From Dehalococcoidia bacterium (GTDB lineage Bacteria; Chloroflexota; Dehalococcoidia; UBA2979), in assembly GCA_020634075.1 (NCBI GenBank), contig JACKCJ010000001.1:10887-74886 (forward strand): a stretch of DNA of 64,000 nt, given 5' to 3'. The notes beneath the pieces were generated by a model, which made no database searches, was not told where the DNA came from, and worked only from the letters and a program-made list of their open reading frames with translations. Shown piece after piece: positions 7,717 to 60,340 of this stretch. The translations under genes and the position numbers were made by a program. Numbering within the stretch: position 1 is the first letter of the stretch; each line of letters opens with the position of its first letter.

Positions 7717-7818
7717 GACAGGATCCCTTCTGACGCCGACCTATCCCTCAGGATGCACGTCGAGCGTCGCCGGCGACCCCGCCACAGGTCCGGGTCATGC
7801 TAGGACGAACGGACCGCC

Positions 7819-8235
7819 CTAGCGGTAGCCGCCGCCGAGTACCGGGTCGGGACCGATGATGTAGTGCGCGAACTCGCGCGCCACCTGGTTCGCCTCGTGG
7901 CGATCTCCGAACAGCGCCGCCTCGTCGCTGCCGTCGTCCACCGGGCGCACCTCGTGCGCGCCCTCGCGAGCGACGCGATCGAGTTCATCCCGCACCTCGT
8001 CGATGCGATGGGGGTCGACGTTCGTCGGCCGCAGGTTGCGGTGGAGGAACTCGCGGTTGCCGGTCAGGGCGTGGAGCACAGACTCGGCGAGCGGGCCGCG
8101 CCGGCCGCCCCAGGCCGCGATGAAGTGGAGACAGATCTCTGCCGGCGGTTGCTGGGGCGGGATCGGGATCGCGTCGTAGTCCGCGAGGTCGACGCGGCGG
8201 CGGCATTCGGGCATGGGACAACGGACAGTGGCCAT
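7819..8235 (-). CDS. hypothetical protein (138 aa)
   Basis: Only the C-terminal 138 codons of the 437-aa ORF are kept, starting at MATVRCPMPECRRRVDLADY.. The upstream part is antisense to the lipoprotein gene and is Arg/Gly-rich. Confidence 0.5.
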   Translation of the reverse strand: MATVRCPMPECRRRVDLADYDAIPIPPQQPPAEICLHFIAAWGGRRGPLAESVLHALTGNREFLHRNLRPTNVDPHRIDEVRDELDRVAREGAHEVRPVDDGSDEAALFGDRHEANQVAREFAHYIIGPDPVLGGGYR

Positions 8236-8316
8236 GCAGCGAGTGTAGGCGTGGCCTGCCGCAACGACCGCCTGCGGTAGGGTGGAATGGGGTCGCGCAA
8301 CGGGACGGACTGCGCG

Positions 8317-10287: not shown

Positions 10288-11967
<1,680 letters not shown>

Positions 11968-44170: not shown

Positions 44171-45505
44171 GTGAGTTCAACCGCACGCAACGCCGTGATC
44201 GGTCTGGCGTCCGCGCTCATCGCGGTCCTGCTGGTCGCGTCCGGATTCCTCGCGCGTGTCGTCACCGAGCCTGACAGCGAACCGGCTTCGGTCACGCAGT
44301 CGACGTCCAGTGGTGGCATCAGCAACCCGACGACCAGCCAGAGCGATGGCGAGTTCGATGGCGACCTGCTCGCTGAGATCGCCGGCGTCCTCAACCGCGA
44401 CTTCGTCGACGAGTCCCGCGTGGATCCGGACCTCCTCAAGGACGGCGCCATCCAGGGCATGTTCAACAGCCTGAATGACCCGCACTCCACCTACATCGAC
44501 CCGCAGACCTATGCCCTCTCCCACGACGACTTCGAGGGCGCCTTCGAGGGCATCGGCGCGACGGTGTCCAAGCAAGATAATTATGTCGTGATCGTGCAGC
44601 CGATCCCGGACACCCCTGCCGCCCAGGCCGGCCTCCAGGCCGGCGACATCATCCTCGCCGTCGACGGCGAGGATGCCGAGAACTGGAGCGTCGAGCAGGC
44701 GGTCATCCGGATCCGCGGGCCTCGCGGCACCTCGGTCGACCTCACCGTGCGCCACGGCGACGGCACGGAGGAGACGCTCACCATCGTGCGCGACAACATC
44801 CCGGTCGCGTCGGTCGTCACGACCCCGCCCACCGGCGAGCTCGTCGACGAGAACGGCGACCCGGTCACCGAGTTCGCCTACATCCGCATCCTGCAGTTCG
44901 CGCGGAACACGCCGCAGGAGCTCCGCGACGCCATCTCGGAGGCCGAGGACAACGGCGCGCAGGGCCTCATCATCGACCTGCGCAGCAACCCCGGCGGACT
45001 GCTCGTGCAGACCATCGAGATCGCCGACATGTTCCTGGACGACGGCATCATCATGAAGCAGGTCGACCGCGCCGGGAACGAACAGACCGCCTCCGCCACG
45101 GCCGGGACCTTCACCGATCTCCCCGTGGTCATCCTGCAGGACGAGTTCTCGGCCTCCGGCTCTGAGCTCTTCGCCGCCGCGATGCAGGAGCACGGCCGCG
45201 CGACGATCATCGGCACACGGTCCTTCGGCAAGGGCACGGTGAACCACGCCGTCGAGCTCTCGAACGGCGGCGCGGTCTACGTCTCGATCGCGCGCTGGCT
45301 CACGCCCGACGGCAACCAGATCGAGGGCCGAGGCATCACGCCGGACGTCCCGATCACCCTGACGCTCGAGGACATCGACGCCCAGCGCGACGTCGCGATC
45401 TTCCGGGCCGTCAACGTCCTGCGTGGCGAGCCGCTTCCGGAGCCTCCGCCCGCCACCGAGACCCCGACGGCGACCGAGAGCGCGACCGCGACGCCCGTCC
45501 CGTAG
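44171..45505 (+). CDS. S41 family C-terminal processing peptidase with PDZ domain
   Basis: N-terminal TM anchor, PDZ (GLQAGDIILAVDG) and Ser/Lys motifs SASGSE and RSFGKGTV. Confidence 0.9.
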   Translation: MSSTARNAVIGLASALIAVLLVASGFLARVVTEPDSEPASVTQSTSSGGISNPTTSQSDGEFDGDLLAEIAGVLNRDFVDESRVDPDLLKDGAIQGMFNSLNDPHSTYIDPQTYALSHDDFEGAFEGIGATVSKQDNYVVIVQPIPDTPAAQAGLQAGDIILAVDGEDAENWSVEQAVIRIRGPRGTSVDLTVRHGDGTEETLTIVRDNIPVASVVTTPPTGELVDENGDPVTEFAYIRILQFARNTPQELRDAISEAEDNGAQGLIIDLRSNPGGLLVQTIEIADMFLDDGIIMKQVDRAGNEQTASATAGTFTDLPVVILQDEFSASGSELFAAAMQEHGRATIIGTRSFGKGTVNHAVELSNGGAVYVSIARWLTPDGNQIEGRGITPDVPITLTLEDIDAQRDVAIFRAVNVLRGEPLPEPPPATETPTATESATATPVP

Positions 45506-45638
45506 CCCGAGGCCATCAGGCGAGGGCCACGCGGCCGCGACCCCGCGGCGGGCGCCCCCTATCCTGCCGATCCCGGCCCCGCCTTCGCGGCGCCGAGCTC
45601 TGTATGATTATGTCTTGTTGAGAGAGTGTCCCCGCAGC

Positions 45639-46133
45639 GTGGCGAAGAAGTCGAAGACAGCCCAGAAGTCGGACCAGGACCAGAGCGCCACGCTCGCGGT
45701 CAACCGTCGCGCGCGCTTCGACTACGAGATCATCGAGTCGGTCGAGGCCGGCCTCGTCCTCACCGGCACGGAGATCAAGTCGCTCCGCGAAGGCACCGGC
45801 TCGATCGCCGAGGCCTACGCGCGGATCCGCGACGGCGAGATGTGGCTCTTCAACATGCACATCCCGCCCTATGCCCCCGCCCGCGAGAACCACGAACCGC
45901 GGCGCGCCCGGAAGCTCCTGATGCACCGCCGGCAGATCGAGGAATGGGAACACCTCCTCGAGACACAGCCGCGCACGACAATCGTGCCGATGCGGATGTA
46001 CCTCACGCGTGGCAAGGCGAAGGTCCAGATCGGCCTGGCGCGCGGCAAGCGCTCCTACGACAAGCGCCAGACGATCGCCAAGCGCGAGGCCGAACGCTCG
46101 ATGCAGCGCGCCCTCCGCCACAATCAGCGCTAG
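45639..46133 (+). CDS. smpB: SsrA-binding protein
   Basis: NRRARFDYEIIESVEAGLVLTGTEIKSLR..KLLMHRRQI.. GTG at 45639. The in-frame TTGs at 45615 and 45618 are alternative starts. Confidence 0.9.
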   Translation: MAKKSKTAQKSDQDQSATLAVNRRARFDYEIIESVEAGLVLTGTEIKSLREGTGSIAEAYARIRDGEMWLFNMHIPPYAPARENHEPRRARKLLMHRRQIEEWEHLLETQPRTTIVPMRMYLTRGKAKVQIGLARGKRSYDKRQTIAKREAERSMQRALRHNQR

Positions 46134-46183
46134 CGAGCGCCTCCCCCCTGCTCCACCGCGTCGAGGGTTGCGCGTGCCGCTAC

Positions 46184-46212
46184 TTGGAGCGGTGTTCGGA
46201 ACACGCTATACT
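46184..46212 (+). promoter_or_regulatory. candidate ssrA promoter
   Basis: TTGGAG-17 nt-TATACT. The -10 element ends 15 nt before the mature tmRNA 5' end. Confidence 0.4.
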
Positions 46213-46227
46213 GGCGTTGCATCGCAT

Positions 46228-46590
46228 GGGGACGACAGGATTCGACAGGTACGTTCCGGTGCGGATCGCGGGTTGAGGTGCCGCCACCCTCACTAATCAG
46301 GCGGCAAACGGATAACTGGCAACCGTCAACTTGCCCTCGCTGCGTAACTAACGTAGCGACGTGGCCGTAGGCCCCACCTCGACGGGTTTGCGGCCGCGAC
46401 GTTAAGTCGAGGTGCCGTGCGGACCTGCGTCTCAGGGTCGCCGCACGAAAGACCAACTGAGACTGGCCGGGTCAGCCCTCAACCGCCACCGGATGGGCGC
46501 CGGCGAGAACAGTCCGTCGTGGCTACACCCGTAGACGTTCGTATCAGTCGTGCTCTGGACGGGGAGTTCAATTCTCCCCCGTCTCCACCA
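46228..46590 (+). ncRNA. ssrA: tmRNA
   Basis: The 5' GGGGACG pairs with the 3' CGTCTCC-ACCA (G3:U70 alanine identity pair). T-arm GGACGGGGAGTTCAATTCTCCCCGTCTCCACCA. Internal tag frame ...AAC CGT CAA CTT GCC CTC GCT GCG TAA (..NRQLALAA*). Immediately follows smpB. Confidence 0.92.
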
Positions 46591-46688
46591 CCGATGCCGC
46601 GGCGCCCCGTGGGCGCGCGGACACAGCGCTCCGAGGAGCGCGCGTGTGCGTGACCGAGGGAGGGCGACTCGACTGCGCCCGAGCGGCG

Positions 46689-46817
46689 CTAGTCCTTGTC
46701 CCGGGGGAGCTTGCTCACGCCCCAGAAGAACACGCCCATGCCGCTTCCGAGCAGGAACATGAAGATGCCCAGTCCAACGGGCGTTCCCCACATGTCCGGC
46801 GACCAGAGACCTTCCAT
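46689..46817 (-). CDS. small membrane protein (42 aa)
   Basis: AGGAGGG-N8-ATG. MEGLWSPDMWGTPVGLGIFMFLLGSGMGVFFWGVSKLPRDKD has one TM segment. The longer 68-aa ORF start is unsupported. Confidence 0.5.
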   Translation of the reverse strand: MEGLWSPDMWGTPVGLGIFMFLLGSGMGVFFWGVSKLPRDKD

Positions 46818-47187
46818 CGTGCGTTCCCTCCTGCCGAGTCCCTGACGCGGTCCTCGCAGCCTGCCGCGCTTCGGCGGCTCAGCTGGGGACGGCATCGGAC
46901 TCTCCGCGACCGGCCGGGACGCCTATGGACACCCGCGACAGAGCCGACCTGAGTGATGCCCGCCGTGGCGGCGGGTGCCCGGGCCGCGCTGTGCGCGCCG
47001 TGGGCCGGACGATGGAAGCACGCTCGGCGGATGGAGACCACCCCGCAGCCGTCGCGGACCGCCCGTCCCGGCGTGATCACCTCGGCACTACCCGATCTCC
47101 ACGGAAGGTCATCCCCCGATCGAGAGGATTCCATCGCTGCGGATTCCCGCGGCACTGGTGCCTGTCATTCGACTGGCAGGAGCGAGC

Positions 47188-48222
47188 ATGGCTCACCCCG
47201 ATCCACTGCTACTGGCGCTCGCGGCGGGACACGCCGTCACCGGCGAGCGTGATAGCCGAGGCCTGGTCGACTCGGCGGTCGAGCACCGCATGACCGGGCT
47301 GCTCTGGAGCGCCGTGGAGCGGGGCGAGGTCGTGCTCTCTCCGGACGAACGCCAGCGTCTGTCCGTGGTGGACATGGCGAACCGCCTCCGCGAGCAGCAG
47401 ATCGAGCGCGCGCTCGTCGAAGCGGTGCGCCGGGCCCGAGGGCTCGGGATCGAGCTCGTGACGTTCAAGGGCGTCACCGCCGCGCGCCGCTGGTACGACC
47501 GCCCCGGGGAGCGCCCCACGTCGGACCTGGACCTGCTGGTCGCTCCGCATGACCGCGCGCGCTACGCCGAGATCGTCCGCGCGCTGAATCCGACGAATGA
47601 CCTCCTGCGCGATCTCACTCCGGAGGAGCTGCTGGATTGGGCCGTCCGCGACCAGGCGATGAACGTCCGCCTGGAGGCGGACCTCGGCGCTCAAACGTGG
47701 TCCGGTCAGCCGGTGACGATCGATCTGCACGTGGACCTGCTGAAGTACGGCATCCCCGGGCGGCAGGCCGAGGAGATCTGGGCACACACGCATCTCTTCG
47801 AGCTCGACGGGGGCGAGACCGTCCGGGTGCTCGATGCGGAGGTCGCGCTCGTCCACCTCCTGCTCCACATGAACCGCGACCGCTTCGCATACCTGATCGC
47901 GTACGCGGACGTGGCGCGCCTCCTGCGGCGCGAGCCGATCGACTGGCAGTACGTGCACCAGTTCGTCGCGCGCGAGGGGCTCGACGTCCCGGTGTATGCG
48001 TCGCTGGATGCCGTCACGCAGAGCCTCGGGATCACCGTGCCGGCGCATCCACCGATCGGTGGATGGCGGGCCCTGCTCTGGAAGCGCCTGTGGAGTCCGC
48101 GCGTGCGGCTCCAGGGCCTCGAGGGGCGGAAGGGGATCCGCCGGCGCCGCCGCTGGCTCCCCGTCATGGCGCGAGGTCGCGCGATCGAGGGCATGAGCGC
48201 CTGGATCCGCGGGACGAGCTGA
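47188..48222 (+). CDS. uncharacterised nucleotidyltransferase family protein (NTP_transf_5-like)
   Basis: ...ELVTFKGVTAARRWYDRPGERPTSDLDLLV... matches the KG..Y..R...DiDlLV pattern of that family. ATG at 47188 follows GGAG. Confidence 0.75.
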   Translation: MAHPDPLLLALAAGHAVTGERDSRGLVDSAVEHRMTGLLWSAVERGEVVLSPDERQRLSVVDMANRLREQQIERALVEAVRRARGLGIELVTFKGVTAARRWYDRPGERPTSDLDLLVAPHDRARYAEIVRALNPTNDLLRDLTPEELLDWAVRDQAMNVRLEADLGAQTWSGQPVTIDLHVDLLKYGIPGRQAEEIWAHTHLFELDGGETVRVLDAEVALVHLLLHMNRDRFAYLIAYADVARLLRREPIDWQYVHQFVAREGLDVPVYASLDAVTQSLGITVPAHPPIGGWRALLWKRLWSPRVRLQGLEGRKGIRRRRRWLPVMARGRAIEGMSAWIRGTS

Positions 48223-48224
48223 CC

Positions 48225-48695
48225 GTGGTCAGAGAGGCGTCGGCAGGGATCCCGCCGGCTGCGGCCCCCCTGCTCCAGCGACGCGTTGCGCTGCGGCCGA
48301 CGTGGCTCCCGGTCATGGGCGAATCGATGGGACGCACCATCCGCGGAGGGAGCGACGTGCTCGTCGCAGCTGCGGAGGAGCCCCGCTTCGGAGAGGTCTG
48401 GGCCTTCTGCAACGCCGCAGGCGTGCTGGTGGTCCACCGCTTCGCGCGGTGCCGGCAGGGTGCGTACTACTTCCAGGGCGACGCCCACTGGCCCGATCCA
48501 CCGGTACCTCGTGCCTGGCTCGTCGGCCGCGTCCTCCGCGTCCGCTCCGGTGGCCGTGAGCGCTCCCTGGGGGGACGTGATCGCCTCGTGGGCGGCCTGC
48601 GGCTGCTGCTGCGCCGGAACGCCCGCGCGCTCGCTCGCCGTCTCGGGCTACGTCGCGTGCGTGACTCCGCGAGGGCGTTCATCCAGCGCAGATAG
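48225..48695 (+). CDS. S24/S26-like (signal-peptidase-like) serine peptidase
   Basis: PVMGESMGRTIRGGSDVLV resembles the GxSMxPT nucleophile box. VVHRFARCRQGAYYFQGD aligns by eye to the ..KRvxGlPGD box with His in place of Lys. GTG starts 3 nt after the upstream stop. Confidence 0.65.
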   Translation: MVREASAGIPPAAAPLLQRRVALRPTWLPVMGESMGRTIRGGSDVLVAAAEEPRFGEVWAFCNAAGVLVVHRFARCRQGAYYFQGDAHWPDPPVPRAWLVGRVLRVRSGGRERSLGGRDRLVGGLRLLLRRNARALARRLGLRRVRDSARAFIQRR

Positions 48696-48747
48696 CCGCC
48701 CCGGCCCGACGCCCGCCCCGGAGGCGTACTGCGGTTCCGCCGCGCAT

Positions 48748-48790
48748 TTCTCCCGAATCATCACGTTTTCTCGACAGCATCTCGGGAGAA
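48748..48790 (+). promoter_or_regulatory. 9-bp perfect inverted repeat flanking an AT-richer spacer, upstream of the small ORF
   Basis: TTCTCCCGA (48748-48756) and TCGGGAGAA (48782-48790) are separated by 25 nt (aatcatcacgttttctcgacagcatc). Confidence 0.35.
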
Positions 48791-48827
48791 TCCGCGCAGC
48801 GGTGTCGGAGGGCGTCAGGAGATCCGA

Positions 48828-48944
48828 GTGACGTACGAGCAGCCGAAGATCGTGGACCGCACCAGCGTGGTCGGTCAGCTGAACCTGGGCAGTGGCAACT
48901 ACACCCAGTCGAAGCGCGGCGGCCGGAGGGGCGGCCGCCGCTAA
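48828..48944 (+). CDS. candidate RiPP precursor peptide (38 aa), unannotated small ORF
   Basis: AGGAGA-N5-GTG. Translates to MTYEQPKIVDRTSVVGQLNLGSGNYTQSKRGGRRGGRR. 36 of 38 codons end in G/C, like bona fide genes here. A 12-bp hairpin follows. Located between the peptidase and kinase genes. Confidence 0.5.
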   Translation: MTYEQPKIVDRTSVVGQLNLGSGNYTQSKRGGRRGGRR

Positions 48945-48966
48945 GCGCGGGGCCACCTGATTCAGC

Positions 48967-48998
48967 GGGAGCCGGTCTTCCTCGGGAGACCGGCTCCC
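48967..48998 (+). terminator. strong stem-loop after the small ORF (attenuator/processing hairpin; no U-tract)
   Basis: Perfect 12-bp stem GGGAGCCGGTCT/AGACCGGCTCCC with an 8-nt loop, 22 nt after the TAA. Confidence 0.5.
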
Positions 48999-49065
48999 TC
49001 CTCTACCGAAGCCGGGACCTGCCGACTCCCGGCTGATGCACGCAACCGGACGGAGACACTGACGC

Positions 49066-50007
49066 ATGCACGGACGAGTCCTGCTGCTCGCGGATGTCCC
49101 GACGGAGCTCATCGCCGCGACCGAAGCCCACGCGGGGGCGTTGGAGCTGATGTTCGCCGCGCTCCCCTCGACGGACGCGACACCGTGGGCACGCATTGAC
49201 TTCGCGCCCGGGCACATCGACCTGCCTGCCCGGCCGTGCGACGAATCCCTCGGCGACCTGCAGTGCTGGCATGAGCCTGGCGGCGTGGTCGTGGAGCACG
49301 TCTCCGGAATGACTGCGCGCGTCCACGATGGGACCGCCACGATCCGGGGCGACGGAGCCGACCTCGCGCTCGTCCTCCGGTGGATCTGCCAGCCCGTCCT
49401 TGCCTACCTCCTTGCCCCCTTCGACCGGTTCTTGCTCCACGCCGGCGCGGTCGGCCGCGAGGGACGCGCGCTGGTGCTGCTCGGCCAGACCGGCAGCGGG
49501 AAGTCCACGTCCACCTACGCGGCGCTCCGCGCGGGATGGGACGTGCTCGGCGACGACCACGTGGTCCTCCGCCGCGGGAGCAGCGGCATCGAGGTCACCG
49601 GCATCCCGAAGCCGCTCTCCGTGCCCGGCGAAGTCGCGGCCGACCTCCCCCACGGTGCGCGGCGGATGCACGACGTGCGCGACCGCTGGGAGCTCCCCGC
49701 CGACGTCATCGCGACGGGCTGGTGGCAGCTCTCGAGCGCCGTCGCCGTCCGCCACGCGGACTCCCTCGGTGGCGAGGTCGAGCCCGTCGACCGCCTGCGG
49801 CTGCTGCGCGAGATCATCGCCGCGTTCCCGGCCTCGGGCTCACGAGAGCCGCTGGGGCGGTTCATGCCGCTCGCCGGGGAGCTGAGTCGGCTTTCCCACA
49901 GTGAGCTACGGCTGGGCCGCGATCCTGGTCAGCGTGTAGAGCGGGCGCCCGCCCTGCTGGAGCGCATCCTGGCGATGGGCGTCGACCCGTTCGCCGAGGT
50001 CCGCTAA
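49066..50007 (+). CDS. HPr kinase/phosphorylase-related P-loop kinase
   Basis: LHAGAVGREGRALVLLGQTGSGKSTSTYAALRAGWDVLGDDHVVL parallels the HprK C-terminal domain (H-G-v..., GxSGxGKS, ..ADD). 313 aa. Confidence 0.78.
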   Translation: MHGRVLLLADVPTELIAATEAHAGALELMFAALPSTDATPWARIDFAPGHIDLPARPCDESLGDLQCWHEPGGVVVEHVSGMTARVHDGTATIRGDGADLALVLRWICQPVLAYLLAPFDRFLLHAGAVGREGRALVLLGQTGSGKSTSTYAALRAGWDVLGDDHVVLRRGSSGIEVTGIPKPLSVPGEVAADLPHGARRMHDVRDRWELPADVIATGWWQLSSAVAVRHADSLGGEVEPVDRLRLLREIIAAFPASGSREPLGRFMPLAGELSRLSHSELRLGRDPGQRVERAPALLERILAMGVDPFAEVR

Positions 50008-50078
50008 CCGCTCCCCGGCGTCCTTCGGCTCGACCGCAGTCAGCGTGAGCCCCGCCATCCCCTGGCGGCCGGCACGAC

Positions 50079-50906
50079 TTAGAAGCTGCTGAGCGTCCCG
50101 GAGATCCGGCCCCACCGCAGCGCCTTGGTCAGCGCCCACATCGAGAGCGGCAGCAGGACGGCCGCCATGACGGCCAGCACCAGCATCTCGTCCCAGGCCG
50201 ACAGCGGATCGTCCGTCAGGAGCGCCGCGCGAAGACCCTCGATGGCGTAGTAGGACGGCAGCATCCTCCCCACGAACTGGAGAGGCAGCGGGAGCAGCGC
50301 GATGGGGAACACCGCGCCGGCGAACAGCGTGGTCGCGGCGCGGATCAGCGGCGTGACGGGCTCGCCGCGCTTGGTTACCACGATGAATGCGGCGGACAGG
50401 ATGCCGATGCCGGCGAATGCGGCGACGTCCAACGCCGCGACCGGGATCGCCACCAGGAGCCCCGTCGCGGAGAACTCGGCGCCGAAGAGCCCGACGCCAA
50501 GCGCGAGGTAGATCAACACCTCGACCACGGCGAAGCCCATCGGAAACAGCGACGCGCCCAGCAGGAGCACCCAGAGCGGAGTCGGCGTGCTCAGGATCGA
50601 GGCGAGCGTCCCCTCCGACTGCTCCCGGGAGATCATCGAGCTGAACATCTGCGAGCCCAGCGTCGCCAGCGTGGTGCCCACGAGGCCCACGAGCACGAAC
50701 TCGAAATAGCCACCGCCGTAGCCGCTCAGTTCCGGTGAGCCGTTCACGAGCTGGGCGATGTAGAAGTACGTCGCGACCGGGAAGACGATCGACAGCAACT
50801 GCATGAGCTGCCCGAAGTGGTACGAGAGCTCGATCTTCAGGTCCCGCCGCCCGAGGGCGACGACACGGTCACGGTTCGATGAACGGAGTGCCGGCAGCGC
50901 GCTCAT
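50079..50906 (-). CDS. ABC-2 type transporter permease
   Basis: 275 aa with six hydrophobic segments. ATGA overlap with the upstream ATPase gene. Confidence 0.85.
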   Translation of the reverse strand: MSALPALRSSNRDRVVALGRRDLKIELSYHFGQLMQLLSIVFPVATYFYIAQLVNGSPELSGYGGGYFEFVLVGLVGTTLATLGSQMFSSMISREQSEGTLASILSTPTPLWVLLLGASLFPMGFAVVEVLIYLALGVGLFGAEFSATGLLVAIPVAALDVAAFAGIGILSAAFIVVTKRGEPVTPLIRAATTLFAGAVFPIALLPLPLQFVGRMLPSYYAIEGLRAALLTDDPLSAWDEMLVLAVMAAVLLPLSMWALTKALRWGRISGTLSSF

Positions 50907-51667
50907 CGGGCGGCGCCTTCCAGCGCATGCAACAGGCCGGAGACACCGTCTTCGCGCGCCCGCAGCCCGGCGGCCGTGTCGGCGAGGACCACCTCGCCCT
51001 CGTTCACGACGACCACCCGGTCGCAGATCTTGAGGACCTCTCCGAGGTCGTGGCTGGAGAGGAGCACGGCGTGCCCCTCGTCCGCGAGACGGCGCACCAG
51101 GCGCCCGACCTCGAGGCTGACCAACGGGTCGAGGCTGCGTGTGGGCTCGTCGAGCAGGAGCAGCGGGGGGTTGGCGATCAGGGCGCGAGCGACGTGCAGA
51201 CGCGTGATCATTCCCGATGAGTAGCCGAAGACCATGCGGTCGCGCCGTGCGAGGTCAGCCTGGCGCATGAGCTCATCCGCCCGCGCCCGGGCCTCCTCCC
51301 GCGGCAGCCCGGCCAGCACGCCGAACAGCGTGAGGTTCTCCATCCCCGTCAGCCGCCAGTAGAAGCCGCGGTCATCGGCGATGACGAGGCCGAGGCGACG
51401 GCGGGCCTCGAGCGACTCCGCGACGACGTCGAAGCCGTCCACGCGCACGCTCCCCGAAGATGGCTCGAGGAGCCCGGCGATGATGTGGAGGAGCGTCGTC
51501 TTGCCGGCCCCGTTGGCCCCGACGAGGCCGACGACCTCACCGCGCCCGGCGCTGAGCGAGACATCGGTGAGCGCCTGGACGGTCCTCGGGGACGCGACGC
51601 GGCTCAGGAGTCGCAACAGCCTCGGCGGTGGTTCGAAGCGCTTCGAGACGTGCTCGACCTCAAGCAT
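50903..51667 (-). CDS. ABC transporter ATP-binding protein
   Basis: Walker A GANGAGKTT, signature YSSGM, Walker B LLLLDEP. Confidence 0.92.
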   Translation of the reverse strand: MLEVEHVSKRFEPPPRLLRLLSRVASPRTVQALTDVSLSAGRGEVVGLVGANGAGKTTLLHIIAGLLEPSSGSVRVDGFDVVAESLEARRRLGLVIADDRGFYWRLTGMENLTLFGVLAGLPREEARARADELMRQADLARRDRMVFGYSSGMITRLHVARALIANPPLLLLDEPTRSLDPLVSLEVGRLVRRLADEGHAVLLSSHDLGEVLKICDRVVVVNEGEVVLADTAAGLRAREDGVSGLLHALEGAAR

Positions 51668-51929
51668 CGGTCTCCTGCACGAGTCCCTGTTCGCGCAGGC
51701 TCTCGAGGAATGCGTCGATGTCGCGTTCGAGGTCCTCGATGGTCACGTCGTCGAACCGAGGATGGAGCTGCGTGGCCAGGTCGTGCGCGCCGGCGCCGGA
51801 GTCGAGGAGTTCCCAGACCATCGTCCCGACCGTATTCAGCGAGATGAGCTCGGAGCCATCCGGCGAGACGAGCATCGCCCGCCCATCGACGGCCTCATGG
51901 ATGACATCAGGCGAACGGCGCACGGCCAT
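51660..51929 (-). CDS. PqqD family protein (RiPP recognition element-like)
   Basis: 89 aa. ..HEAVDGRAMLVSPDGSELISLNTVGTMVWELLD... is the typical PqqD fold pattern. 8-nt overlap with the ABC ATPase gene. Confidence 0.82.
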   Translation of the reverse strand: MAVRRSPDVIHEAVDGRAMLVSPDGSELISLNTVGTMVWELLDSGAGAHDLATQLHPRFDDVTIEDLERDIDAFLESLREQGLVQETDA

Positions 51930-51984
51930 AGTGCCTCCCGGACCCGCAGCGAACTCGGTGCCTCTGCACCGTCATTGACGCTGA

Positions 51985-54564
<2,580 letters not shown>

Positions 54565-55370: not shown

Positions 55371-55859
55371 ATGAGACGCGCACTTCAGCGGGTTCGACGA
55401 GACCAGGGACAGGCGGTCGTCGAGCTCGTCCTCATCCTGCCGCTCGTCCTCGTGCTGGTCTTCGCCATCGTCGAGTTCGGCGTCGCGCTGAATGCACGTC
55501 TCACCGTGCAGAACGCGGCGTCCGAGGGTGCTCGCTACGGGTCGCTGGGTTCCCCGCCCGGCGACGCCTCCTGCGCGGCCAACACCGCGCGAGGACGCGC
55601 CCTGAGCGCGAGTGGCGGGATGCTCGACTGCTCCGAGATCACGATCACCTACCCGGGCGGCGTCGGAAGTGCCACCCGCGGTGACGAGGTCGCGGTCCAC
55701 ATCAGCCACGAGTACACCGCCGTGACCCCCCTCGGCGGCCTGCTTCAGCTCATCGGTGCTGTCGGGTTCCCCGACACCCTCACCCTGAGCGCCTGCTCGA
55801 GTGGGCGGCTCGAGCAGGCGCCCTCACCCTCGGTCTCGCATGGAGGCTCGTCGTGCTAG
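55371..55859 (+). CDS. tadE: TadE-like pseudopilin/assembly protein
   Basis: GQAVVELVLILPLVLVLVFAIVEFG, the TadE N-terminal motif. Confidence 0.8.
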   Translation: MRRALQRVRRDQGQAVVELVLILPLVLVLVFAIVEFGVALNARLTVQNAASEGARYGSLGSPPGDASCAANTARGRALSASGGMLDCSEITITYPGGVGSATRGDEVAVHISHEYTAVTPLGGLLQLIGAVGFPDTLTLSACSSGRLEQAPSPSVSHGGSSC

Positions 55860-56947
55860 CCGCGTTCCGCGCGGCCGCGCGCGAGCTCTCCGTGCGGGTC
55901 CGGCAGACCGGCGGACAGACCACGCTGTTCCTGGTCCTGTTCCTCTTCCTGTTCGGGGCGCTTGGGGCGGCCGTCGTCGACGTCGGCCTCCTCATCAACG
56001 CTCGCCGCGAGGCGCAGTCCGACGCCGACCGAGCAGCGCTCGCCGGCACGCTCGAGCTCTCGCTTTCCGCGAATCCCAGCGTGCAGGCGGCGGACGAGGC
56101 GGCAGCGATCACCAAGGCAACCGCCTGGGCGGAGAAGAACGGCGTCCCCGCGGGCGCCGGGCTCACGGTCTCCACGGTGCGGACGTGCTTCTCCGGTGCC
56201 GGCGGCGACGACGGACAGGCGACGGGGATCCAGGTCACCGTGGACCGCACACCGCCGTCGATCTTCCTCGGCGCGCTGGGGCTCACCAACTGGAACGTCA
56301 GTGCGACGGCGGTCTCGTGCGGATTCGGGCGAGACATCGCGGTGGTGATCGACCGCTCCGGGTCGATGTGCCAGGACTCGCACGGGATGACGCTCTATTG
56401 CCCCGACCCGCCCCCGGCGTGGGACCCGTTCTCGTCCGTGCAGGCGGCGGCCCTGAGCTTCGCCGGCAACTTCTCGCCGACGTACGACCAGCTGGCCCTC
56501 GTCTCGTACTCCTCGACGGCGTCCGTCGACGAGCCGCTGGGCAACTCGTTCGGTCCGGGGAGCGACTTCGAAGATGCCGTCGATGCGATGCATCCCGGCG
56601 GCTACACGAACATCGGCGACGCGATCTCCCTCGCGCGGCAGCAGCTCACCGGCTCTGCCGCCCGGTCCGACGCTGCCCACGTCCTCGTCCTGCTGACCGA
56701 TGGCGTCCCCAACCTGCCCGACAACACCACCACCGGTCAGACGTACGCCGAGACGCAGGCACAGCTCGCGGCCGACGACGGAATCCTGATCTACGTCATC
56801 GGGCTCGGTGACGGCGTCGACGGCGACTTCCTCCAGGGAATCGCCTCCATCGGCGGCGGCATCTACCTCAACGCCCCCGAGGCATCCGACCTCCAGGGCG
56901 CCTTCCAGACCATCGCAGACCTCGCCCAGCCCCGGCTGACGCGGTAG
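55853..56947 (+). CDS. tadG: TadG-like pilus assembly protein with von Willebrand factor A domain
   Basis: N-terminal TM segment with GGQTTLFLVLFLFLFG. vWA MIDAS motif VVIDRSGSM and ..LLTDGVPN.. Confidence 0.8.
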   Translation: MLAAFRAAARELSVRVRQTGGQTTLFLVLFLFLFGALGAAVVDVGLLINARREAQSDADRAALAGTLELSLSANPSVQAADEAAAITKATAWAEKNGVPAGAGLTVSTVRTCFSGAGGDDGQATGIQVTVDRTPPSIFLGALGLTNWNVSATAVSCGFGRDIAVVIDRSGSMCQDSHGMTLYCPDPPPAWDPFSSVQAAALSFAGNFSPTYDQLALVSYSSTASVDEPLGNSFGPGSDFEDAVDAMHPGGYTNIGDAISLARQQLTGSAARSDAAHVLVLLTDGVPNLPDNTTTGQTYAETQAQLAADDGILIYVIGLGDGVDGDFLQGIASIGGGIYLNAPEASDLQGAFQTIADLAQPRLTR

Positions 56948-56966
56948 CGCACGAGCGGAGCGCATT

Positions 56967-57815
56967 ATGTCTCGCATCACACGCCTAGTCGGAAGACGGA
57001 ACGTCCCGATCCTGCTCGCCCTCCTCCTGGGCGGAGCGACCTTCATCGGCGCGCTCGCGTGGCTACCCACGTTGTCGGATGGCGACACGACGCCGACCGT
57101 CGAGACGCGGTCCGTCCTCGTCGCCCGCGACGACCTCAGCGCAGGCGAACGCCTCGACCGCTCTCGCCTCGCGCTCGTGGAGGTCCCCACCGACGTCATC
57201 GCGACGGGAGCGCTCACACGGATCGAGGACGGCGAGGGCCAGGTGCTCCGCTACCCGGTCGAGGCCGGCGAGCAGATCCTCGCCTCGAAGTTCGTCGGCG
57301 CGGAGCGCGCCGAGGCTACCGGCCTCGCGTTCGTGGTCCCCGAGGGCATGCGGGCTGTCTCCGTCCCGGTGACCGAGGTCACCGGCGCCGGTGGCCTCAT
57401 CGTCCCCGGTGACCGCGTCGACGTCCTCGCCGCGGTCTCGGAGACGTTGCTCGTCGGGGCCGACTACCCCACCGAGGGACCCGAGGCCGACATCGCACGG
57501 CGCGAGGCGCCCACGGCGATCGTCACGGTGCTGCAGAACGCGCTCGTCCTCGCGGTGGGCCAGTCCGTCAGTGACACCTCGTCCGTGTCCCGCGACGACG
57601 GTGCGCAGCGCGCGGACGACGCCACCCCCGACCCCAAGGCGGTCTCGGTGACACTCGCGGTCTCACCCGAGGACGCCCAGGCGCTGTTCATGGCCGTGAC
57701 CGAGGGCTCGATCGGGCTCGCACTCCGCTCCTTCGGTGACACGTCGAGCGCCACCGTGGCGCCCATCGTCGACGTGGCTCCGGCGGACGACCAGCCGAAG
57801 GTGAGCGCACGATGA
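56967..57815 (+). CDS. cpaB: Flp pilus assembly protein CpaB (SAF domain)
   Basis: N-terminal anchor, then VLVARDDLSAGERL..VEVP.. SAF-like region. Confidence 0.85.
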   Translation: MSRITRLVGRRNVPILLALLLGGATFIGALAWLPTLSDGDTTPTVETRSVLVARDDLSAGERLDRSRLALVEVPTDVIATGALTRIEDGEGQVLRYPVEAGEQILASKFVGAERAEATGLAFVVPEGMRAVSVPVTEVTGAGGLIVPGDRVDVLAAVSETLLVGADYPTEGPEADIARREAPTAIVTVLQNALVLAVGQSVSDTSSVSRDDGAQRADDATPDPKAVSVTLAVSPEDAQALFMAVTEGSIGLALRSFGDTSSATVAPIVDVAPADDQPKVSAR

Positions 57816-59026
57816 CCAGCCTCCAGGAACGCACCCACGTCGACGCCGCCGGCGCCTCCTCGGTGCTCGTCGTCGACCCCAATCTCGACAGCCGCCTGGA
57901 CGCCGTGACGGCCGTGAAGCAGGCCGGACTTCCGCTCGCGGGCGAAGCCCCCTACGGCGCGGAGGCGACCTTCCTCGAAGCCGACCGAGCGCCCGCGCTC
58001 ATCCTCGTCGCGCTCGAGGAGCCACCGATGCGCGGCATCGCCACCATCGAGGCGATCCGCCGCCAGAACGCGAACGCCGCGGTGGTCGTCTACTCCTCCA
58101 GCGCCGCACCGGAGCTGCTCCGCCAGGCGATGCGCGCCGGCGCGCGGGACTTCCTCGCGAAGCCCCTCTCGGCGCGCGACGTCACCGAGGCCCTCGCGTT
58201 CCGGGCTGACGGACCGGGCGATGACGGCGAGGCTCCCGGGAATCGCGAACGAGGCACCGGGACCGTGATCACGGTGGCCGGCGCGAAGGGCGGCATCGGC
58301 AAGAGCACGCTCGCCGCCAACCTCGCCGTCGCGCTCCGAGAGATCACGTCGCAGGACGTGGCGCTCCTCGACACGGACGTGCAGTTCGGCGACATCGGCG
58401 TCATCTTCGATGTCGAGCCCCCTCACGACCGCTGCGTCTCCTACCTCGGCCGCGAGGGCGTGACGCTCTCGCGCGACGTGGTGGCGGAGTCGCTGATCCG
58501 CCACGAGTCCGGCATCGACATCCTCGCGGTACTCCCCGAGCCGAACGACTGGCGCGTGGTGCGGCCCGAGCAGGTGGCGCGCCTGGCGCGCGCCCTCGCG
58601 GAGACGCACGAGTACGTCGTCGTCGACACGCCCGGCACCATCAACGAGGTCGTTGCCGCGGCGCTCTGCGAGGCGGACGTCATCCTGCTGGTGACCTCGC
58701 TCGAGATGTCCAGCATCAAGGACACCAAGACGGCCGTCCGGGTGCTCGGCTCGCTGGGCGTGGACTCCGGGCGGATCCGCCTCGTGATCAACGACAGCAC
58801 GTCGGCGTCAGCGATCACCCCGGACGACGTCGCCGAGGCCACCGGACTGCCGGTGGCGACCAGCATTCCCCACGACCGCCAGCTTGGACGCAGCGTCCAG
58901 CGAGGCGTCCCCGTGTACCTGGAGCACCGCGGCGGGACCTTCCCGCGCGCCGTCGCCGACCTCGCCGGCTCGCTGGCCGGCGTCACCACCGGCTCGCGGC
59001 GACGGCGCCTGCCTTTCCTCCGGTAG
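57812..59026 (+). CDS. cpaE: CpaE/TadZ-like pilus localisation ATPase (pseudo-receiver + MinD/ParA domain)
   Basis: Receiver-like N-domain in which the phospho-acceptor position reads LILVALEEP (no Asp). Deviant Walker A GAKGGIGKST. Confidence 0.85.
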   Translation: MTSLQERTHVDAAGASSVLVVDPNLDSRLDAVTAVKQAGLPLAGEAPYGAEATFLEADRAPALILVALEEPPMRGIATIEAIRRQNANAAVVVYSSSAAPELLRQAMRAGARDFLAKPLSARDVTEALAFRADGPGDDGEAPGNRERGTGTVITVAGAKGGIGKSTLAANLAVALREITSQDVALLDTDVQFGDIGVIFDVEPPHDRCVSYLGREGVTLSRDVVAESLIRHESGIDILAVLPEPNDWRVVRPEQVARLARALAETHEYVVVDTPGTINEVVAAALCEADVILLVTSLEMSSIKDTKTAVRVLGSLGVDSGRIRLVINDSTSASAITPDDVAEATGLPVATSIPHDRQLGRSVQRGVPVYLEHRGGTFPRAVADLAGSLAGVTTGSRRRRLPFLR

Positions 59027-59050
59027 CCACGAACGAAACGAGGTAGCGAC

Positions 59051-60340
59051 ATGACCGCCGAGGTCACCCCCATCACACGACGAGAGAGCGACGGCGACAC
59101 GATCCGCCAGGGCTTTGTCGAACGCATCCACGACCAGGTGATCCGCGAGCTCGATCTCCGCTCGCTGGAGAAGCTGCCCGACGACGCCCGACGCGGACGG
59201 GTCGAGGCGTCGATCGGGGCCGCGCTCAACTCGCTCCCCGGCGCCCCGGCCGGTGTCGCCCGGCGACAGATCGTGGAGCAGGTCGCCGCGGAGGTCCTCG
59301 GGCTCGGCCCGATCCAGGCGCTCCTCGATGACCCCGATGTCAGCGAGGTCATGGTCAACGGCCCGCGCGAGGTCTACTTCGAACGTGACGGCGTGCTGCA
59401 CGAGGCCGAGGCCTGGTTCCGGGACGCCGAGCACATCCGACGCGTCGCGGACCGCATCGTGGCGCCCCTCGGCCGCCGCCTCGACGAGACCTCGCCGATG
59501 GTCGACGCACGCCTACCGGATGGGTCACGCGTCAACGTGGTCCTGCCGCCGATCGCGGTGAACAGCCCGACCATCACCGTCCGCAAGTTCCGGCATGACC
59601 GGTTCGACATGAACGACCTCGTGCGCATCGGATCGCTCAGCGAGCAGGCGGCCGACTTCCTCCGCGAGGCGGTGCGATGCCGCACGAGCATCCTGATCTC
59701 CGGCGGCACCGGCAGTGGCAAGACCACGCTCCTGAGCGCCCTCTCGGAAGCCATCCCGGAGACCGAGCGCATCGTGACGATCGAGGACCCGATCGAGATC
59801 CGGCTGCGCCAGCGCCACGTCGTCACGCTCGAGGCACGCCCGGCTGTCACCAGCGCGAAGTCCGCCGTCACGCAGCGCGATCTCGTGCGGAACGCCCTCC
59901 GCATGCGGCCCGACCGCATCATCATCGGCGAGGTCCGGGGCGCCGAGGCCTTCGACATGATGCAGGCGATGAACACGGGACACGAGGGTTCGCTCAGCAC
60001 CGTGCACGCGAACACCCCTCGGGACGCCCTGTCGCGCGTCGAGAACATGGTGATGATGGCCGGGTTCGACCTGCCCGTCACCGCCATTCGGGAGCAGATC
60101 GCCTCGGCGCTCTCGCTCGTGATCCAGGTCAGCCGCCTCCCGGATGGGAAGCGCTGCGTCACCGCCATCTCCGAGGTGACGAGCCTCGAGGGCACCGTCA
60201 TCGGCCTCCAGGACGTGTTCCGCCTGGAACGCGGCTTCGGCCCCGAGGGGCACGTCCAGACCACGCTCGTGGCGACGGGCGTCCGTCCCCAGTTCGCGGA
60301 CAAGTTCGGCGACCGGCCGAGCCTCCCGGCGCAGCGGTAG
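59051..60340 (+). CDS. cpaF: CpaF/TadA family secretion ATPase
   Basis: Walker A GGTGSGKTT, EDPIE, GEVRG and the His box TGHEGSLSTVHAN. Confidence 0.95.
   Translation: MTAEVTPITRRESDGDTIRQGFVERIHDQVIRELDLRSLEKLPDDARRGRVEASIGAALNSLPGAPAGVARRQIVEQVAAEVLGLGPIQALLDDPDVSEVMVNGPREVYFERDGVLHEAEAWFRDAEHIRRVADRIVAPLGRRLDETSPMVDARLPDGSRVNVVLPPIAVNSPTITVRKFRHDRFDMNDLVRIGSLSEQAADFLREAVRCRTSILISGGTGSGKTTLLSALSEAIPETERIVTIEDPIEIRLRQRHVVTLEARPAVTSAKSAVTQRDLVRNALRMRPDRIIIGEVRGAEAFDMMQAMNTGHEGSLSTVHANTPRDALSRVENMVMMAGFDLPVTAIREQIASALSLVIQVSRLPDGKRCVTAISEVTSLEGTVIGLQDVFRLERGFGPEGHVQTTLVATGVRPQFADKFGDRPSLPAQR

Follow-up and report, generated by a model that had tools for sequence, protein, structure and literature searches.

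A conserved 38-codon gene in a Dehalococcoidia bacterium as the probable precursor of an LPP-type, leader-dependent RiPP pathway

We report that a 38-codon open reading frame (ORF) in a 64-kb window, the whole stretch of Dehalococcoidia DNA analyzed here, is a real, conserved gene. By analogy with a characterized pathway, its product is very likely the precursor peptide in a RiPP pathway that depends on a leader, forms no lasso, and is of the linear polyphosphorylated peptide (LPP) type; the mature product is most likely a small secreted phosphorylated peptide. The enzyme logic is not new in kind; it was published in 2026 as the LPP pathway, lppA-K-B-S-D-N, of Paenibacillus alginolyticus DSM5050 (Popov et al., Nat Commun 2026, PMC13381572). 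The ORF encodes MTYEQPKIVDRTSVVGQLNLGSGNYTQSKRGGRRGGRR and belongs to a seven-gene cassette that also comprises genes for an NTP_transf_5 protein, a peptidase, an HprK-like kinase, an ABC-2 permease with its ATPase, and a PqqD-type recognition protein (RRE). As listed in Table 1, the peptidase, kinase, and PqqD neighbors on which the first-pass annotation had relied are all present, with an S24/S26-type peptidase gene upstream and the HprK-like kinase gene downstream.

Table 1. Features of the precursor gene and its cassette, in positions of the window
Feature	Position	Strand	Remarks
NTP_transf_5 (PF14907) nucleotidyltransferase-fold enzyme, putative LppN/PsmN-like tailoring enzyme	47158..48222	+	Pfam E 7.6e-29
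Signal-peptidase-I-like leader peptidase (clan SF, S24/S26 fold), predicted	48225..48695	+	Pfam S24 6.6e-4; TIGR02228 0.018
Conserved block of ~30 nt, TTTCTCCCGAATCATCACGTTTTCTCGACA	48747..48776	+	50-80 nt ahead of precursor start
Shine-Dalgarno sequence AGGAGA	48817..48822	+	5-nt spacer TCCGA ahead of GTG
Precursor peptide gene, LppA-like	48828..48944	+	38 aa plus stop; GTG start at 48828, TAA stop at 48942-48944; 8 syntenic loci, purifying-selection signature
Inferred leader, residues 1-18, MTYEQPKIVDRTSVVGQL	48828..48881	+	RRE-binding-type Y3-x-x-P6-x-I8; G16-x-L18 end
Inferred core, residues 19-38, NLGSGNYTQSKRGGRRGGRR	48882..48941	+	hypervariable across loci except [G/P]-S-G
Ser22 codon (core position +4), predicted (poly)phosphorylation site	48891..48893	+	
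Perfect 14-bp GC-rich hairpin, 4-nt loop	48967..48998	+	22 nt past stop, ahead of kinase gene
HprK-like peptide kinase (PF27840 ScmC family), predicted	49066..50007	+	NCBIfam HprK_rel_A 2.7e-11; precomputed PF27840
ABC-2 type permease (DrrB-like), exporter	50079..50906	-	Pfam ABC2_membrane 2.2e-17; in all syntenic loci
ABC transporter ATPase (DrrA-like)	50903..51667	-	Pfam ABC_tran 3e-29; TIGR01188 4e-62
Discrete PqqD-family RRE	51660..51929	-	Pfam PqqD 1.7e-15

An ORF this short is insignificant alone in DNA of 70% GC, where 175 ORFs of at least 30 aa overlapped 18 kb, and it is the comparison across loci that lifts the precursor ORF above chance. The start codon, the Shine-Dalgarno sequence with its spacer, and the third-position composition were as first annotated, with 36 of the 38 codons ending in G or C (GC3 = 0.95), and the frame plot has a coding-type GC3 peak at 48820-48940 in the precursor frame. 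The conserved small ORF that should be found in syntenic clusters if the candidate were genuine was present between the peptidase and kinase genes at eight distinct loci; GGAG-type sites lie 5 to 9 nt ahead of its start in all eight, and independent gene callers had called it in six of the fetched loci. Pairwise differences among the loci numbered 192 at codon position 3, compared to 107 and 85 at the other two positions. Synonymous and non-synonymous codon differences stood at 145:147 in the precursor frame versus 41:267 and 23:262 in the shifted frames, and 8 of the 11 invariant residues showed synonymous nucleotide changes. Purifying selection on the amino acids extends over the first 23 residues.

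The cassette is conserved as a unit, while its flanks differ at each locus. Its relatives are rare; they come from MAGs labeled Dehalococcoidia (Chloroflexota), from MAGs of Actinomycetota, and from metagenome contigs without assignment. Scans with the kinase alignment returned nine loci in GTDB species genomes and seven in JGI metagenomes, at most four of which carry the cassette (L011, L012, L013, and L020); L011 and L012 come from contigs already represented in the set of loci, and L020 is possibly a duplicate of L009. No convincing YxxP-type small ORF was found near the remoter HprK-like kinases (L014-L019 and L021-L026); two of these loci, L015 and L018, encode two HprK-like kinases and PqqD without a peptidase, NTP_transf_5, or precursor peptide. 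Related leaders also occur in rearranged clusters. In L013 the kinase is divergent and encoded on the other strand from the precursor, L028 has two precursor copies on the strand opposite a PqqD-peptidase-kinase operon, and in L027 and L031 the precursor ORF follows the peptidase gene and the next gene is a convergent GNAT. Rarity, locus-specific flanks, and hypervariable cores point to a product that acts in competition or signaling.

Precursors of 13 relatives were aligned with four Bacillota LPP precursors. The alignment is gapless from the Tyr to the Leu at +15, where conservation ends and where L18 of the window peptide stands in register with T(-1) of the LPPs; precursors of distant relatives likewise align free of gaps up to Leu18 and diverge beyond it. 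On this register and this end of conservation, we infer that residues 1-18 form the leader and NLGSGNYTQSKRGGRRGGRR the core, with cleavage after L18. The N-terminus is conserved and the C-terminus hypervariable in Dehalococcoidia-type, Actinomycetota, and unassigned metagenome clusters alike, and YxxPx[I/V] is the sole part kept in all relatives, including rearranged clusters in another phylum. Of the two features whose conservation the first-pass annotation had proposed to check, the YxxPx(I/L) motif held as YxxPx[I/V], whereas the polycationic tail did not: tails are Gly/Arg/Pro/Lys-rich in close relatives and acidic, Cys-containing, or just 5-7 residues long in distant ones.

The suggestion that this motif serves for PqqD binding fits the RRE as well, because the residues that would hold the leader Tyr and Pro are kept. 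The best solved structure for the window RRE among PDB entries was LppB (9x8z_B, 1.3e-4), and N32, D70, and F74 correspond to LppB N33, D70, and F74, which hold the Tyr and Pro of the leader. A profile of 11 LPP RREs matched the window RRE at 7.5e-12, versus 3.5e-4 for four paeninodin-type lasso RREs. Profile score and contact residues both fit an RRE of the LPP kind.

The predicted catalytic residues of the peptidase are Ser34, His71, and Asp91, with the GTG at 48225 taken as the start codon. Twelve Bacillota LppS-type peptidases, combined into a profile, matched it with an E value of 3.3e-10 and with Ser, His, and Asp aligned (S29, H68, and D93 in LppS; PMC13381572); across 19 homologues the three residues are invariant or nearly so. 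Its AF2 model (pLDDT 89) matches LexA, lambda cI, human SEC11, SipA, and SpsB, and so confirms the S24/S26-type fold at the level of a predicted structure. The window NTP_transf_5 protein scored 15 bits against LppN, the top of three N proteins. The kinase matched an HPr kinase in the PDB at 5e-4 with P-loop, His, and Asp-Asp aligned, and its catalytic His, GxGKS/T, and DD are invariant. Among characterized peptide kinases, BsfK was its top match (39.9 bits) and LppK a weak one (12.7 bits).

LppK and BsfK phosphorylate Ser3 of the core (PMC13381572; PMC10368454), and likeness to them makes Ser22 the predicted phosphorylation site. This residue is invariant in eight close relatives, in which its codon is AGT or AGC. 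The earlier proposal that Ser, Thr, and Tyr residues of the core act as acceptors therefore agrees with the presence of a kinase, but the set of residues it listed does not hold up, Ser22 alone being invariant. Moreover, the acceptor position is not universal: L013, an Actinomycetota relative, lacks Ser at the corresponding place in its core, and in some distant relatives the sole core Ser or Thr is C-terminal. Ser is the last residue only in the distant relatives L027 and L031; that of the window peptide is Arg.

The published LPP core set consists of an SpI-like peptidase, a stand-alone RRE, a kinase resembling HprK, and NTP_transf_5 (PMC13381572), and the window cassette has an equal set, plus an ABC exporter and without a lasso cyclase. 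The leader peptidase is of the archaeal-type, SipW-like Ser-His-Asp kind in both, the NTP_transf_5 proteins belong to one Pfam family (PF14907), and the window peptidase and RRE are detectably homologous to their LPP counterparts. Precursors of both systems carry an N-terminal YxxPx[V/I] leader in which conservation runs equally far past the Tyr (Y to +15). In both, a Ser is conserved 3-4 residues inside the core, and the C-terminus is hypervariable, rich in Gly, and often basic.

The two systems differ in several respects. LPPs are stated to be restricted to Bacillota (PMC13381572), whereas the hosts here are Dehalococcoidia (Chloroflexota) and Actinomycetota MAGs. The LPP leader motif is YxxPxVLxHQxIxFETxxS (Px9Fx[T/A]) with Ser at +3 (PMC13381572), of which the window-type leaders share YxxPx[I/V] and the spacing alone; the C-terminal half of the leader reads ERxSVVGQL here in place of HQxIxFET, and Px9[G/A]xL is followed by xx[G/P]S, which puts Ser at +4. 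A profile of 11 Bacillota LPP leaders, searched against all fetched loci, gave the window-type peptides E values above 10, which counts against strict family membership of the precursor. At 30-41 aa, the precursors lie at or below the lower bound of the published 35-200 aa, and the window core is rich in Arg and Gly. All syntenic loci encode as exporter a two-gene ABC-2 (DrrAB-like) pump, as opposed to the MsbA-like fused TMD-NBD protein of LPP clusters, the cluster lies outside polysaccharide loci and adjoins no lasso cluster, and the kinase is nearer BsfK than LppK.

The LPP-type reading implies the following sequence of events. The precursor would be translated from its own Shine-Dalgarno site, and the hairpin probably limits read-through into the kinase gene or stabilizes a short transcript, which would yield more precursor than enzyme. 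Through Y3, P6, and I8, the leader would bind the PqqD protein as a beta strand seated in its two hydrophobic pockets; D70 would form a hydrogen bond with the Tyr, and N32 and F74 would hold the Pro kink. This step draws on the conserved residues and on the LppB-LppA crystal structure. The HprK-like kinase would phosphorylate the Ser just inside the core of the RRE-bound precursor, possibly several times on the one residue, with Ser22 as the acceptor predicted by LppK/BsfK analogy, and NTP_transf_5 may decorate the phosphate further, as with the hexose of pseudomycoidin. The Ser-His-Asp peptidase would cut off the leader, most likely after G16-Q17-L18, because this site is in register with LPP F-E-T(-1) and conservation stops there. 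Finally, the DrrAB-type ABC-2 pump would export a Gly/Arg-rich product of about 20 residues with an anionic phosphate near its N-terminus. Experimental precedent for each proposed step exists in the LPP and Bsf systems.

A bolder reading is that the Dehalococcoidia-type, Actinomycetota, and soil-metagenome clusters form a separate, hitherto unrecognized RiPP lineage, sister to the Bacillota LPPs, marked by a distinct leader code (YExPxI-x5-[IV]-x-[G/A]-x-L), cores that can be as small as 5-7 residues, accessory GNAT or CAAX-protease genes, and a product that is no simple phosphopeptide. We regard this as unlikely, though it is a reading to be taken seriously. If it were true, the product could be a short cationic peptide with a phospho-linked nucleotide or sugar added by NTP_transf_5, possibly antimicrobial or dependent on uptake for its activity.

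Less probable still is that other RRE-dependent chemistry operates here and that the peptide is not phosphorylated, or only transiently so (followed by elimination, substitution, or nucleotidylation by NTP_transf_5), so that the final product is no phosphopeptide. The function of LppN, for which no activity was seen, and the final LPP product are unsettled in the published system too (PMC13381572), and the cores of distant relatives have no conserved Ser. The kinase family PF27840 is named after ScmC, from an uncharacterized radical-SAM cassette; the window kinase gives partial matches around the P-loop to HPr-rel-A/ScmC models (TIGR04352, TIGR04355, and TIGR04249), with PqqD likewise co-encoded, but it reached only 43.1 and 33.3 bits against cut-offs of 200 (TIGR04352/TIGR04353/TIGR04355). 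On the other hand, the three characterized homologues (LppK, PbaK-type, and BsfK) genuinely phosphorylate peptide Ser residues, and their products keep the phosphate; the catalytic residues of the window kinase are conserved; and the genes that the cassette retains across the syntenic loci include no radical SAM, lyase, or other modifying gene.

A lasso core has Gly, Ala, Ser, or Cys at position 1 and Asp or Glu at positions 7-9, and its leader has Thr, rarely Ile or Val, at -2. In the window peptide, no Asp or Glu follows residue 10, which leaves the predicted core without a partner for the macrolactam, and Leu stands at the lasso -2 register in place of Thr, Ile, or Val. We thus give very little credence to the reading that it is a lasso precursor whose cyclase and B2 protein are encoded elsewhere, with the kinase and nucleotidyltransferase as tailoring enzymes as in paeninodin, pseudomycoidin, and Bsf. 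It is true that phosphorylated lasso clusters typically have a YxxPx[I/L] leader, a PqqD RRE encoded as a discrete protein, an HprK-like kinase, and NTP_transf_5, and that the characterized kinase nearest to that of the window, BsfK, is a lasso kinase. Nonetheless, neither an Asn-synthase-like cyclase nor a transglutaminase-like B2 protein was found within about 6 kb at any of some ten loci, nor did the large ORFs of the window include one, in agreement with the original expectation of non-lasso processing; a dedicated Ser-His-Asp peptidase adjoins the precursor in every cluster, rearranged ones included; and the RRE scores the LPP profile above the paeninodin-lasso profile.

The phosphorylated lasso clusters are informative in their own right. 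In the Bsf cluster of Bradymonas sediminis (Duan et al. 2023, PMC10368454), an HprK-like kinase phosphorylates, with RRE assistance, Ser3 near the N-terminus of the core, and the cluster shares with the window an NTP-transferase gene, a YxxPxL-type leader, and a non-Thr residue near the leader end; it differs in having a lasso cyclase and a B2 cysteine protease, which lead to a macrolactam, where the window has a serine peptidase. In the paeninodin and pseudomycoidin lasso clusters (Zhu et al. 2016; Zyubko et al. 2019; review PMC8498205), an HPr-kinase homologue and then a nucleotidyltransferase-fold enzyme act on a precursor Ser, adding in pseudomycoidin a phosphate and then a hexose, and a discrete PqqD RRE is encoded as in the window. 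Their kinases, however, act on a C-terminal Ser and their leaders carry WxxP, compared to YxxP in the window.

The DNA around the precursor ORF bears on a further reading, that of a regulatory upstream ORF or attenuator leader peptide whose translation, together with the hairpin, controls the kinase and whose peptide is functionless. The ORF is short, lies directly ahead of the kinase gene, and is followed by a strong conserved hairpin: an equivalent of 11-17 bp follows the precursor stop in all eight loci, and the stem of L006 is unrelated in sequence. The hairpin lacks a U-tract and so is absent from the list of the terminator scan; it is probably a transcript 3' end, an attenuator, or a stabilizer. 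In the aligned upstream regions of the eight loci, the block listed in Table 1 is conserved amid diverged intergenic DNA, and it may serve the precursor gene as promoter or operator; a sigma-70 consensus was not detected, and the promoter and terminator consensus scans gave no matches. An Rfam scan of 45500-52500 returned a tmRNA alone, so the hairpin and the block are not known RNA families. The regulatory reading is nevertheless hardly credible, since the first 23 residues are under purifying selection, the leader motif is kept where the ORF does not precede the kinase gene (L013, L028, L027, and L031), and RREs of the co-encoded family bind precisely this motif. The cluster begins about 570 nt past the tmRNA gene; a tmRNA-targeted genomic island was considered and found unsupported, as the tmRNA 3' end has no direct repeat and the GC content is not anomalous.

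Database searches with the peptide itself gave no protein match. phmmer against 1.84 billion representatives returned nothing at E values up to 0.001, which, as the method is weak for so short a query, tells solely that the precursor family is not large; a word-based search with the padded peptide against a 5.8-billion-protein set, in which three shared 5-mers were required, and phmmer against PDB chains were likewise without match, and neither Pfam nor NCBIfam holds a model that matches it. Together with the great number of short ORFs in such GC-rich DNA, these null results are all that speaks for a chance ORF in intergenic DNA, a reading already refuted by the codon-position and synonymous-change analysis and opposed by the conserved start and Shine-Dalgarno site and by retention of the ORF in eight syntenic loci and in rearranged clusters.

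If the LPP-type assignment is correct, the combination of an RRE-guided peptide kinase, a nucleotidyltransferase, and a signal-peptidase-like protease is not confined to Bacillota, contrary to the sole paper on the family (PMC13381572). The new clade would have a second, divergent version of the peptidase-recognition half of the leader, G-x-L versus F-E-T. Its precursors are very small, at 30-41 aa with cores as short as 5 residues, and could be easier substrates with which to study the action of NTP_transf_5 and the mature product. For annotation, the leader supplies a concrete motif for short precursor genes, which callers missed in some related loci. The peptidase gene is sometimes called too short in related loci, with loss of the catalytic Ser.

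The 38-codon ORF encodes MTYEQPKIVDRTSVVGQLNLGSGNYTQSKRGGRRGGRR; when the sequence was re-read, its start, AGGAGA site, 5-nt spacer, and product were exactly as the first-pass annotation had them. The high GC3 of real genes claimed there was likewise recovered, with a value of 0.95 and a coding-type third-position GC peak in the precursor frame, between both flanking genes, in the GC frame plot. Because the window has a GC content of 70%, the ORF by itself is not significant; ORFs of at least 30 aa number 175 and overlap 18 kb of window DNA. The decisive support is the comparison among loci. The equivalent small ORF that the annotation had proposed to look for between peptidase and kinase genes of homologous clusters was found in eight of eight distinct syntenic loci, with the consensus MTYExPxIVERxSVVGQLxx[G/P]SG, beyond which the tail varies. 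It was called independently by gene callers in six fetched loci, and a GGAG-type ribosome-binding site precedes it in all eight. Within codons 1-23, pairs of loci differed 192 times at codon position 3 versus 107 and 85 at the others, the ratio of synonymous to nonsynonymous codon differences was 145:147 in frame (versus 41:267 and 23:262 when the frame was shifted), and 8 of the 11 invariant residues carried synonymous nucleotide changes. The precursor ORF is a real gene, and the earlier reading of it is supported.

Features of the cassette, its surroundings, and comparison loci (L numbers denote other fetched loci, MAG or metagenome contigs with a related kinase or peptidase)
Locus	Feature	Position	Strand	Remark
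Window	smpB	ends 46133		upstream of tmRNA gene
Window	smpB, then tmRNA gene	45423-46590		
Window	tmRNA gene	46228-46590		Rfam 125.6 bits; tag GNRQLALAA
Window	42-aa ORF	46689-46817	-	
Window	NTP_transf_5	47158-48222	+	Pfam 7.6e-29
Window	peptidase	48225-48695	+	
Window	precursor Shine-Dalgarno AGGAGA	48817-48822	+	5-nt spacer to GTG
Window	precursor	48828-48944	+	
Window	precursor start GTG	48828	+	sequence
Window	precursor stop TAA	48942-48944	+	sequence
Window	hairpin	48967-48998		perfect, 14 bp
Window	kinase	49066-50007	+	
Window	ABC-2 permease	50079-50906	-	
Window	ABC ATPase	50903-51667	-	
Window	PqqD	51660-51929	-	1.7e-15
Window	katG	from 52003		next after PqqD
Window	Tad/Flp pilus genes	55853-60340	+	beyond katG
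L001	automatic peptidase call	2281-2658		125 aa
L008	automatic peptidase call	4049-4426		125 aa
L013	precursor	2066-2188	-	
L013	other feature	311-1069	-	
L013	other feature	1111-2049	+	
L014	leader-profile match	11714-11902	+	E 0.38
L015	kinase-PqqD-kinase	5437-8655		
L018	kinase-PqqD-kinase	3574-6801		
L027	precursor	1244-1336	+	
L028	two tandem precursors	688-1007	-	
L031	precursor	906-1022	+	

Detectable homologues of the window kinase numbered 17 in a set of 5.8 billion protein clusters; most come from MAGs named Dehalococcoidia, and the contigs encoding seven of the 17 were fetched. Every contig long enough had a common gene order: NTP_transf_5, small peptidase, small ORF, and kinase on one strand, with ABC-2 permease, ABC ATPase, and PqqD convergent. 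The flanking genes differ at every locus; the set of seven thus acts as a self-contained cassette. A kinase-alignment scan of 185,579 GTDB species genomes gave nine loci, three with the cassette (two on contigs already fetched, the third being L013, an Actinomycetota MAG locus), and the same scan of JGI metagenomes gave seven, one with the cassette; a whole-library search with the peptide, a low-power test, gave no match at E up to 0.001. Thus, the cassette family is rare, and its named relatives are MAGs called Dehalococcoidia or Actinomycetota.

In a profile search of the PDB, the kinase family aligned with HPr kinase/phosphorylase over the catalytic His, the GxGKS/T P-loop, and the Asp-Asp pair, all invariant across the family. 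Against NCBIfam, the kinase gave partial matches to HprK-related kinase A, B, and ScmC, far below cut-offs, and its precomputed Pfam label is PF27840 (ScmC); it scored 39.9 bits with BsfK, 24.3 with PbaK, and 12.7 with LppK. The peptidase alone gave weak S24 and archaeal signal-peptidase matches only. Its AF2 model, built on 19 homologues (pLDDT 89), matches the C-domains of LexA, lambda cI, and UmuD', and also human SEC11, SipA, and SpsB; the modeled fold is that of clan SF serine peptidases. The motif GxSMG...VVHRF...GDAxxPD has, like archaeal and ER-type enzymes, His at the place where bacterial signal peptidases and LexA have Lys.

The linear polyphosphorylated peptide (LPP) pathway was defined in Bacillota, to which LPPs were stated to be restricted (Popov et al., Nat Commun 2026; PMC13381572). 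Its core enzymes are the archaeal-type, SipW-like signal peptidase LppS, the discrete RRE LppB, the HprK-like kinase LppK, and the NTP_transf_5 protein LppN, for which no activity was seen; the clusters have an MsbA-like pump, and the precursors (35 to 200 aa) carry the leader motif YxxPxVLxHQxIxFETxxS and a hypervariable C terminus (PMC13381572). LppK was shown experimentally to put several phosphates on core Ser3, LppS (S29, H68, D93) cuts after T(-1) solely with LppB present, and Tyr(-16) and Pro(-13) dock into LppB with contacts D70, N33, and F74 (PMC13381572). BsfK, of a Bradymonas lasso cluster, performs RRE-assisted phosphorylation of core Ser3 (PMC10368454).

We built LPP profiles from the sequences in the supplement of PMC13381572. 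The profile of 12 LppS-type peptidases matched the window peptidase at E 3.3e-10 and aligned its Ser, His, and Asp; that of 11 LPP RREs matched the window PqqD at 7.5e-12, versus 3.5e-4 with a small paeninodin-lasso RRE profile. The best solved-structure match of PqqD was LppB (9x8z_B, 1.3e-4); the lasso proteins TbiB1 and TfuB1 ranked below it. The PqqD residues N32, D70, and F74 correspond to the LppB contacts N33, D70, and F74; NTP_transf_5 best matched LppN, with a weak score. These peptides went undetected by a profile built from 11 LPP leaders of Bacillota (E above 10), the two groups sharing YxxPx[I/V] alone, and the exporter is ABC-2 type whereas that of LPP is MsbA-like. This kind of system was already published in 2026 and is not categorically new; the window system is a divergent variant, differing in phyla, in the leader's peptidase-recognition half, in the exporter, and in very short Arg/Gly-rich cores. 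Its occurrence outside Bacillota contradicts the stated restriction, and it offers compact substrates for unsolved parts of LPP chemistry. It reveals no new principle.

The peptide is most likely the precursor of an LPP-like pathway. The comparisons above establish a real gene, a conserved cassette, proteins homologous to those of LPP, and conserved contact and catalytic residues. We infer that the RRE would dock it via Y3, P6, and I8, that the kinase would act on Ser22, and that NTP_transf_5 might decorate the phosphate further, as in hexose addition in pseudomycoidin; the Ser-His-Asp peptidase would then take off the leader, and the ABC-2 pump would export the product.

Distant clusters, reached via peptidase homologues (L013 via the kinase scan), have rearranged gene order and added GNAT or CAAX-protease genes; they keep a small ORF with the same N terminus, usually directly 3' of the peptidase gene. 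Its products are MDYQAPKVIERISIDGLLGCEELPFLCPPDGGTGSDIRGV in L013, MQYESPAIETREPIEGMLWHHGPPGQHGGS in L027, ...QYETPAIERRETVEGMLFKDWPGWNTGGGS in L031, and ...YEPPRIIDVADVEAHLAPITN and ...YEAPRVLEQVDVEAHLGTTVSTQ from two copies in L028. These peptides and four Bacillota LPP precursors aligned without gaps from Tyr to Tyr+15, with the pattern Y-x-x-P-x-[IV]-x5-[IV]-x-[G/A/F]-x-[L/T]. Because similarity vanishes beyond Tyr+15, a position occupied by T(-1) in LPP and by L18 in the window peptide, the predicted leader is residues 1-18, with putative cleavage after G16-Q17-L18 and a candidate 20-residue core, NLGSGNYTQSKRGGRRGGRR. Ser22 (core +4), the one hydroxyl residue unchanged throughout the eight close relatives (codons AGT and AGC both used), is the predicted kinase site. 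This is the weakest inference, since L013 lacks Ser there and L027 and L031 carry a C-terminal Ser instead; we give the exact cleavage and phosphorylation sites an even chance of being correct.

In L013, the kinase is divergent from the peptidase and precursor, a CAAX/Rce1-like protease and a GNAT are added, and the core is acidic with two Cys. In L027 and L031, the precursor follows the peptidase, a GNAT acetyltransferase gene comes next, and both predicted cores end in Gly-Gly-Ser, reminiscent of the C-terminal Ser on which paeninodin-type kinases act. L028, a metagenome cluster, has PqqD, peptidase, and ScmC-type kinase on the strand opposite NTP_transf_5; both precursors have long acidic N-terminal extensions and predicted cores of 5 and 7 residues (APITN and GTTVSTQ).

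A less probable alternative is a different end chemistry, in which phosphate would be an intermediate or nucleotidylation would occur. A lasso-peptide precursor is unlikely: neither a lasso cyclase nor a B2 protease was found close to the cassette in any locus or in the large ORFs of the window, the core lacks an acidic acceptor, and the cluster has a dedicated serine peptidase, in agreement with the annotation's expectation of non-lasso processing. Radical SAM genes were likewise absent from those places. A purely regulatory upstream ORF is also unlikely, as the leader is kept in clusters that place the ORF elsewhere than upstream of the kinase. The codon-position and synonymous-change pattern across loci excludes a chance ORF.

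All eight syntenic loci have a GC-rich hairpin 3' of the precursor stop; the L006 stem is unrelated in sequence to the others, so structure rather than sequence is what is kept. A block of ~30 nt, 50 to 80 nt 5' of the precursor start, is conserved amid otherwise diverged intergenic DNA. Block and hairpin may constitute a dedicated promoter/operator and a transcript end/attenuator of the precursor.

The cassette begins ~570 nt past the tmRNA gene; an integrated island there is not supported, as neither an att-like repeat of the tmRNA 3' end nor a GC anomaly was found. A long Arg/Pro-rich stretch extends the N terminus of the listed smpB ORF, suggesting a true start further downstream. Between the tmRNA gene and the cluster, a 42-aa ORF (MEGLWSPDMWGTPVGLGIFMFLLGSGMGVFFWGVSKLPRDKD; ribosome-binding site GGAGGGAA) has one hydrophobic helix and coding-type GC3 in the frame plot; no counterpart was called beside the cassette in other loci. 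The Tad/Flp pilus genes (TadE/G-VWA protein, RcpC/CpaB, ParA-like response-regulator fusion, and CpaF-type ATPase) appear unrelated to the cluster. Among all fetched loci, the top LPP-leader-profile match, a nonsignificant one, lies in L014, where a distant HprK-like kinase gene is ~5 kb upstream. In the Solirubrobacterales MAG loci L015 and L018, a PqqD gene sits between two HprK-like kinase genes, an 'HPr-rel-A'-like arrangement; peptidase and NTP_transf_5 are absent, and no YxxP small ORF was found there. Finally, the automatic peptidase calls in L001 and L008 begin at the Met of MGRTIR and so miss two elements encoded in frame upstream, the N-terminal helix and the GxSMG catalytic Ser; an artefact of annotation, these short calls would conceal the active site.
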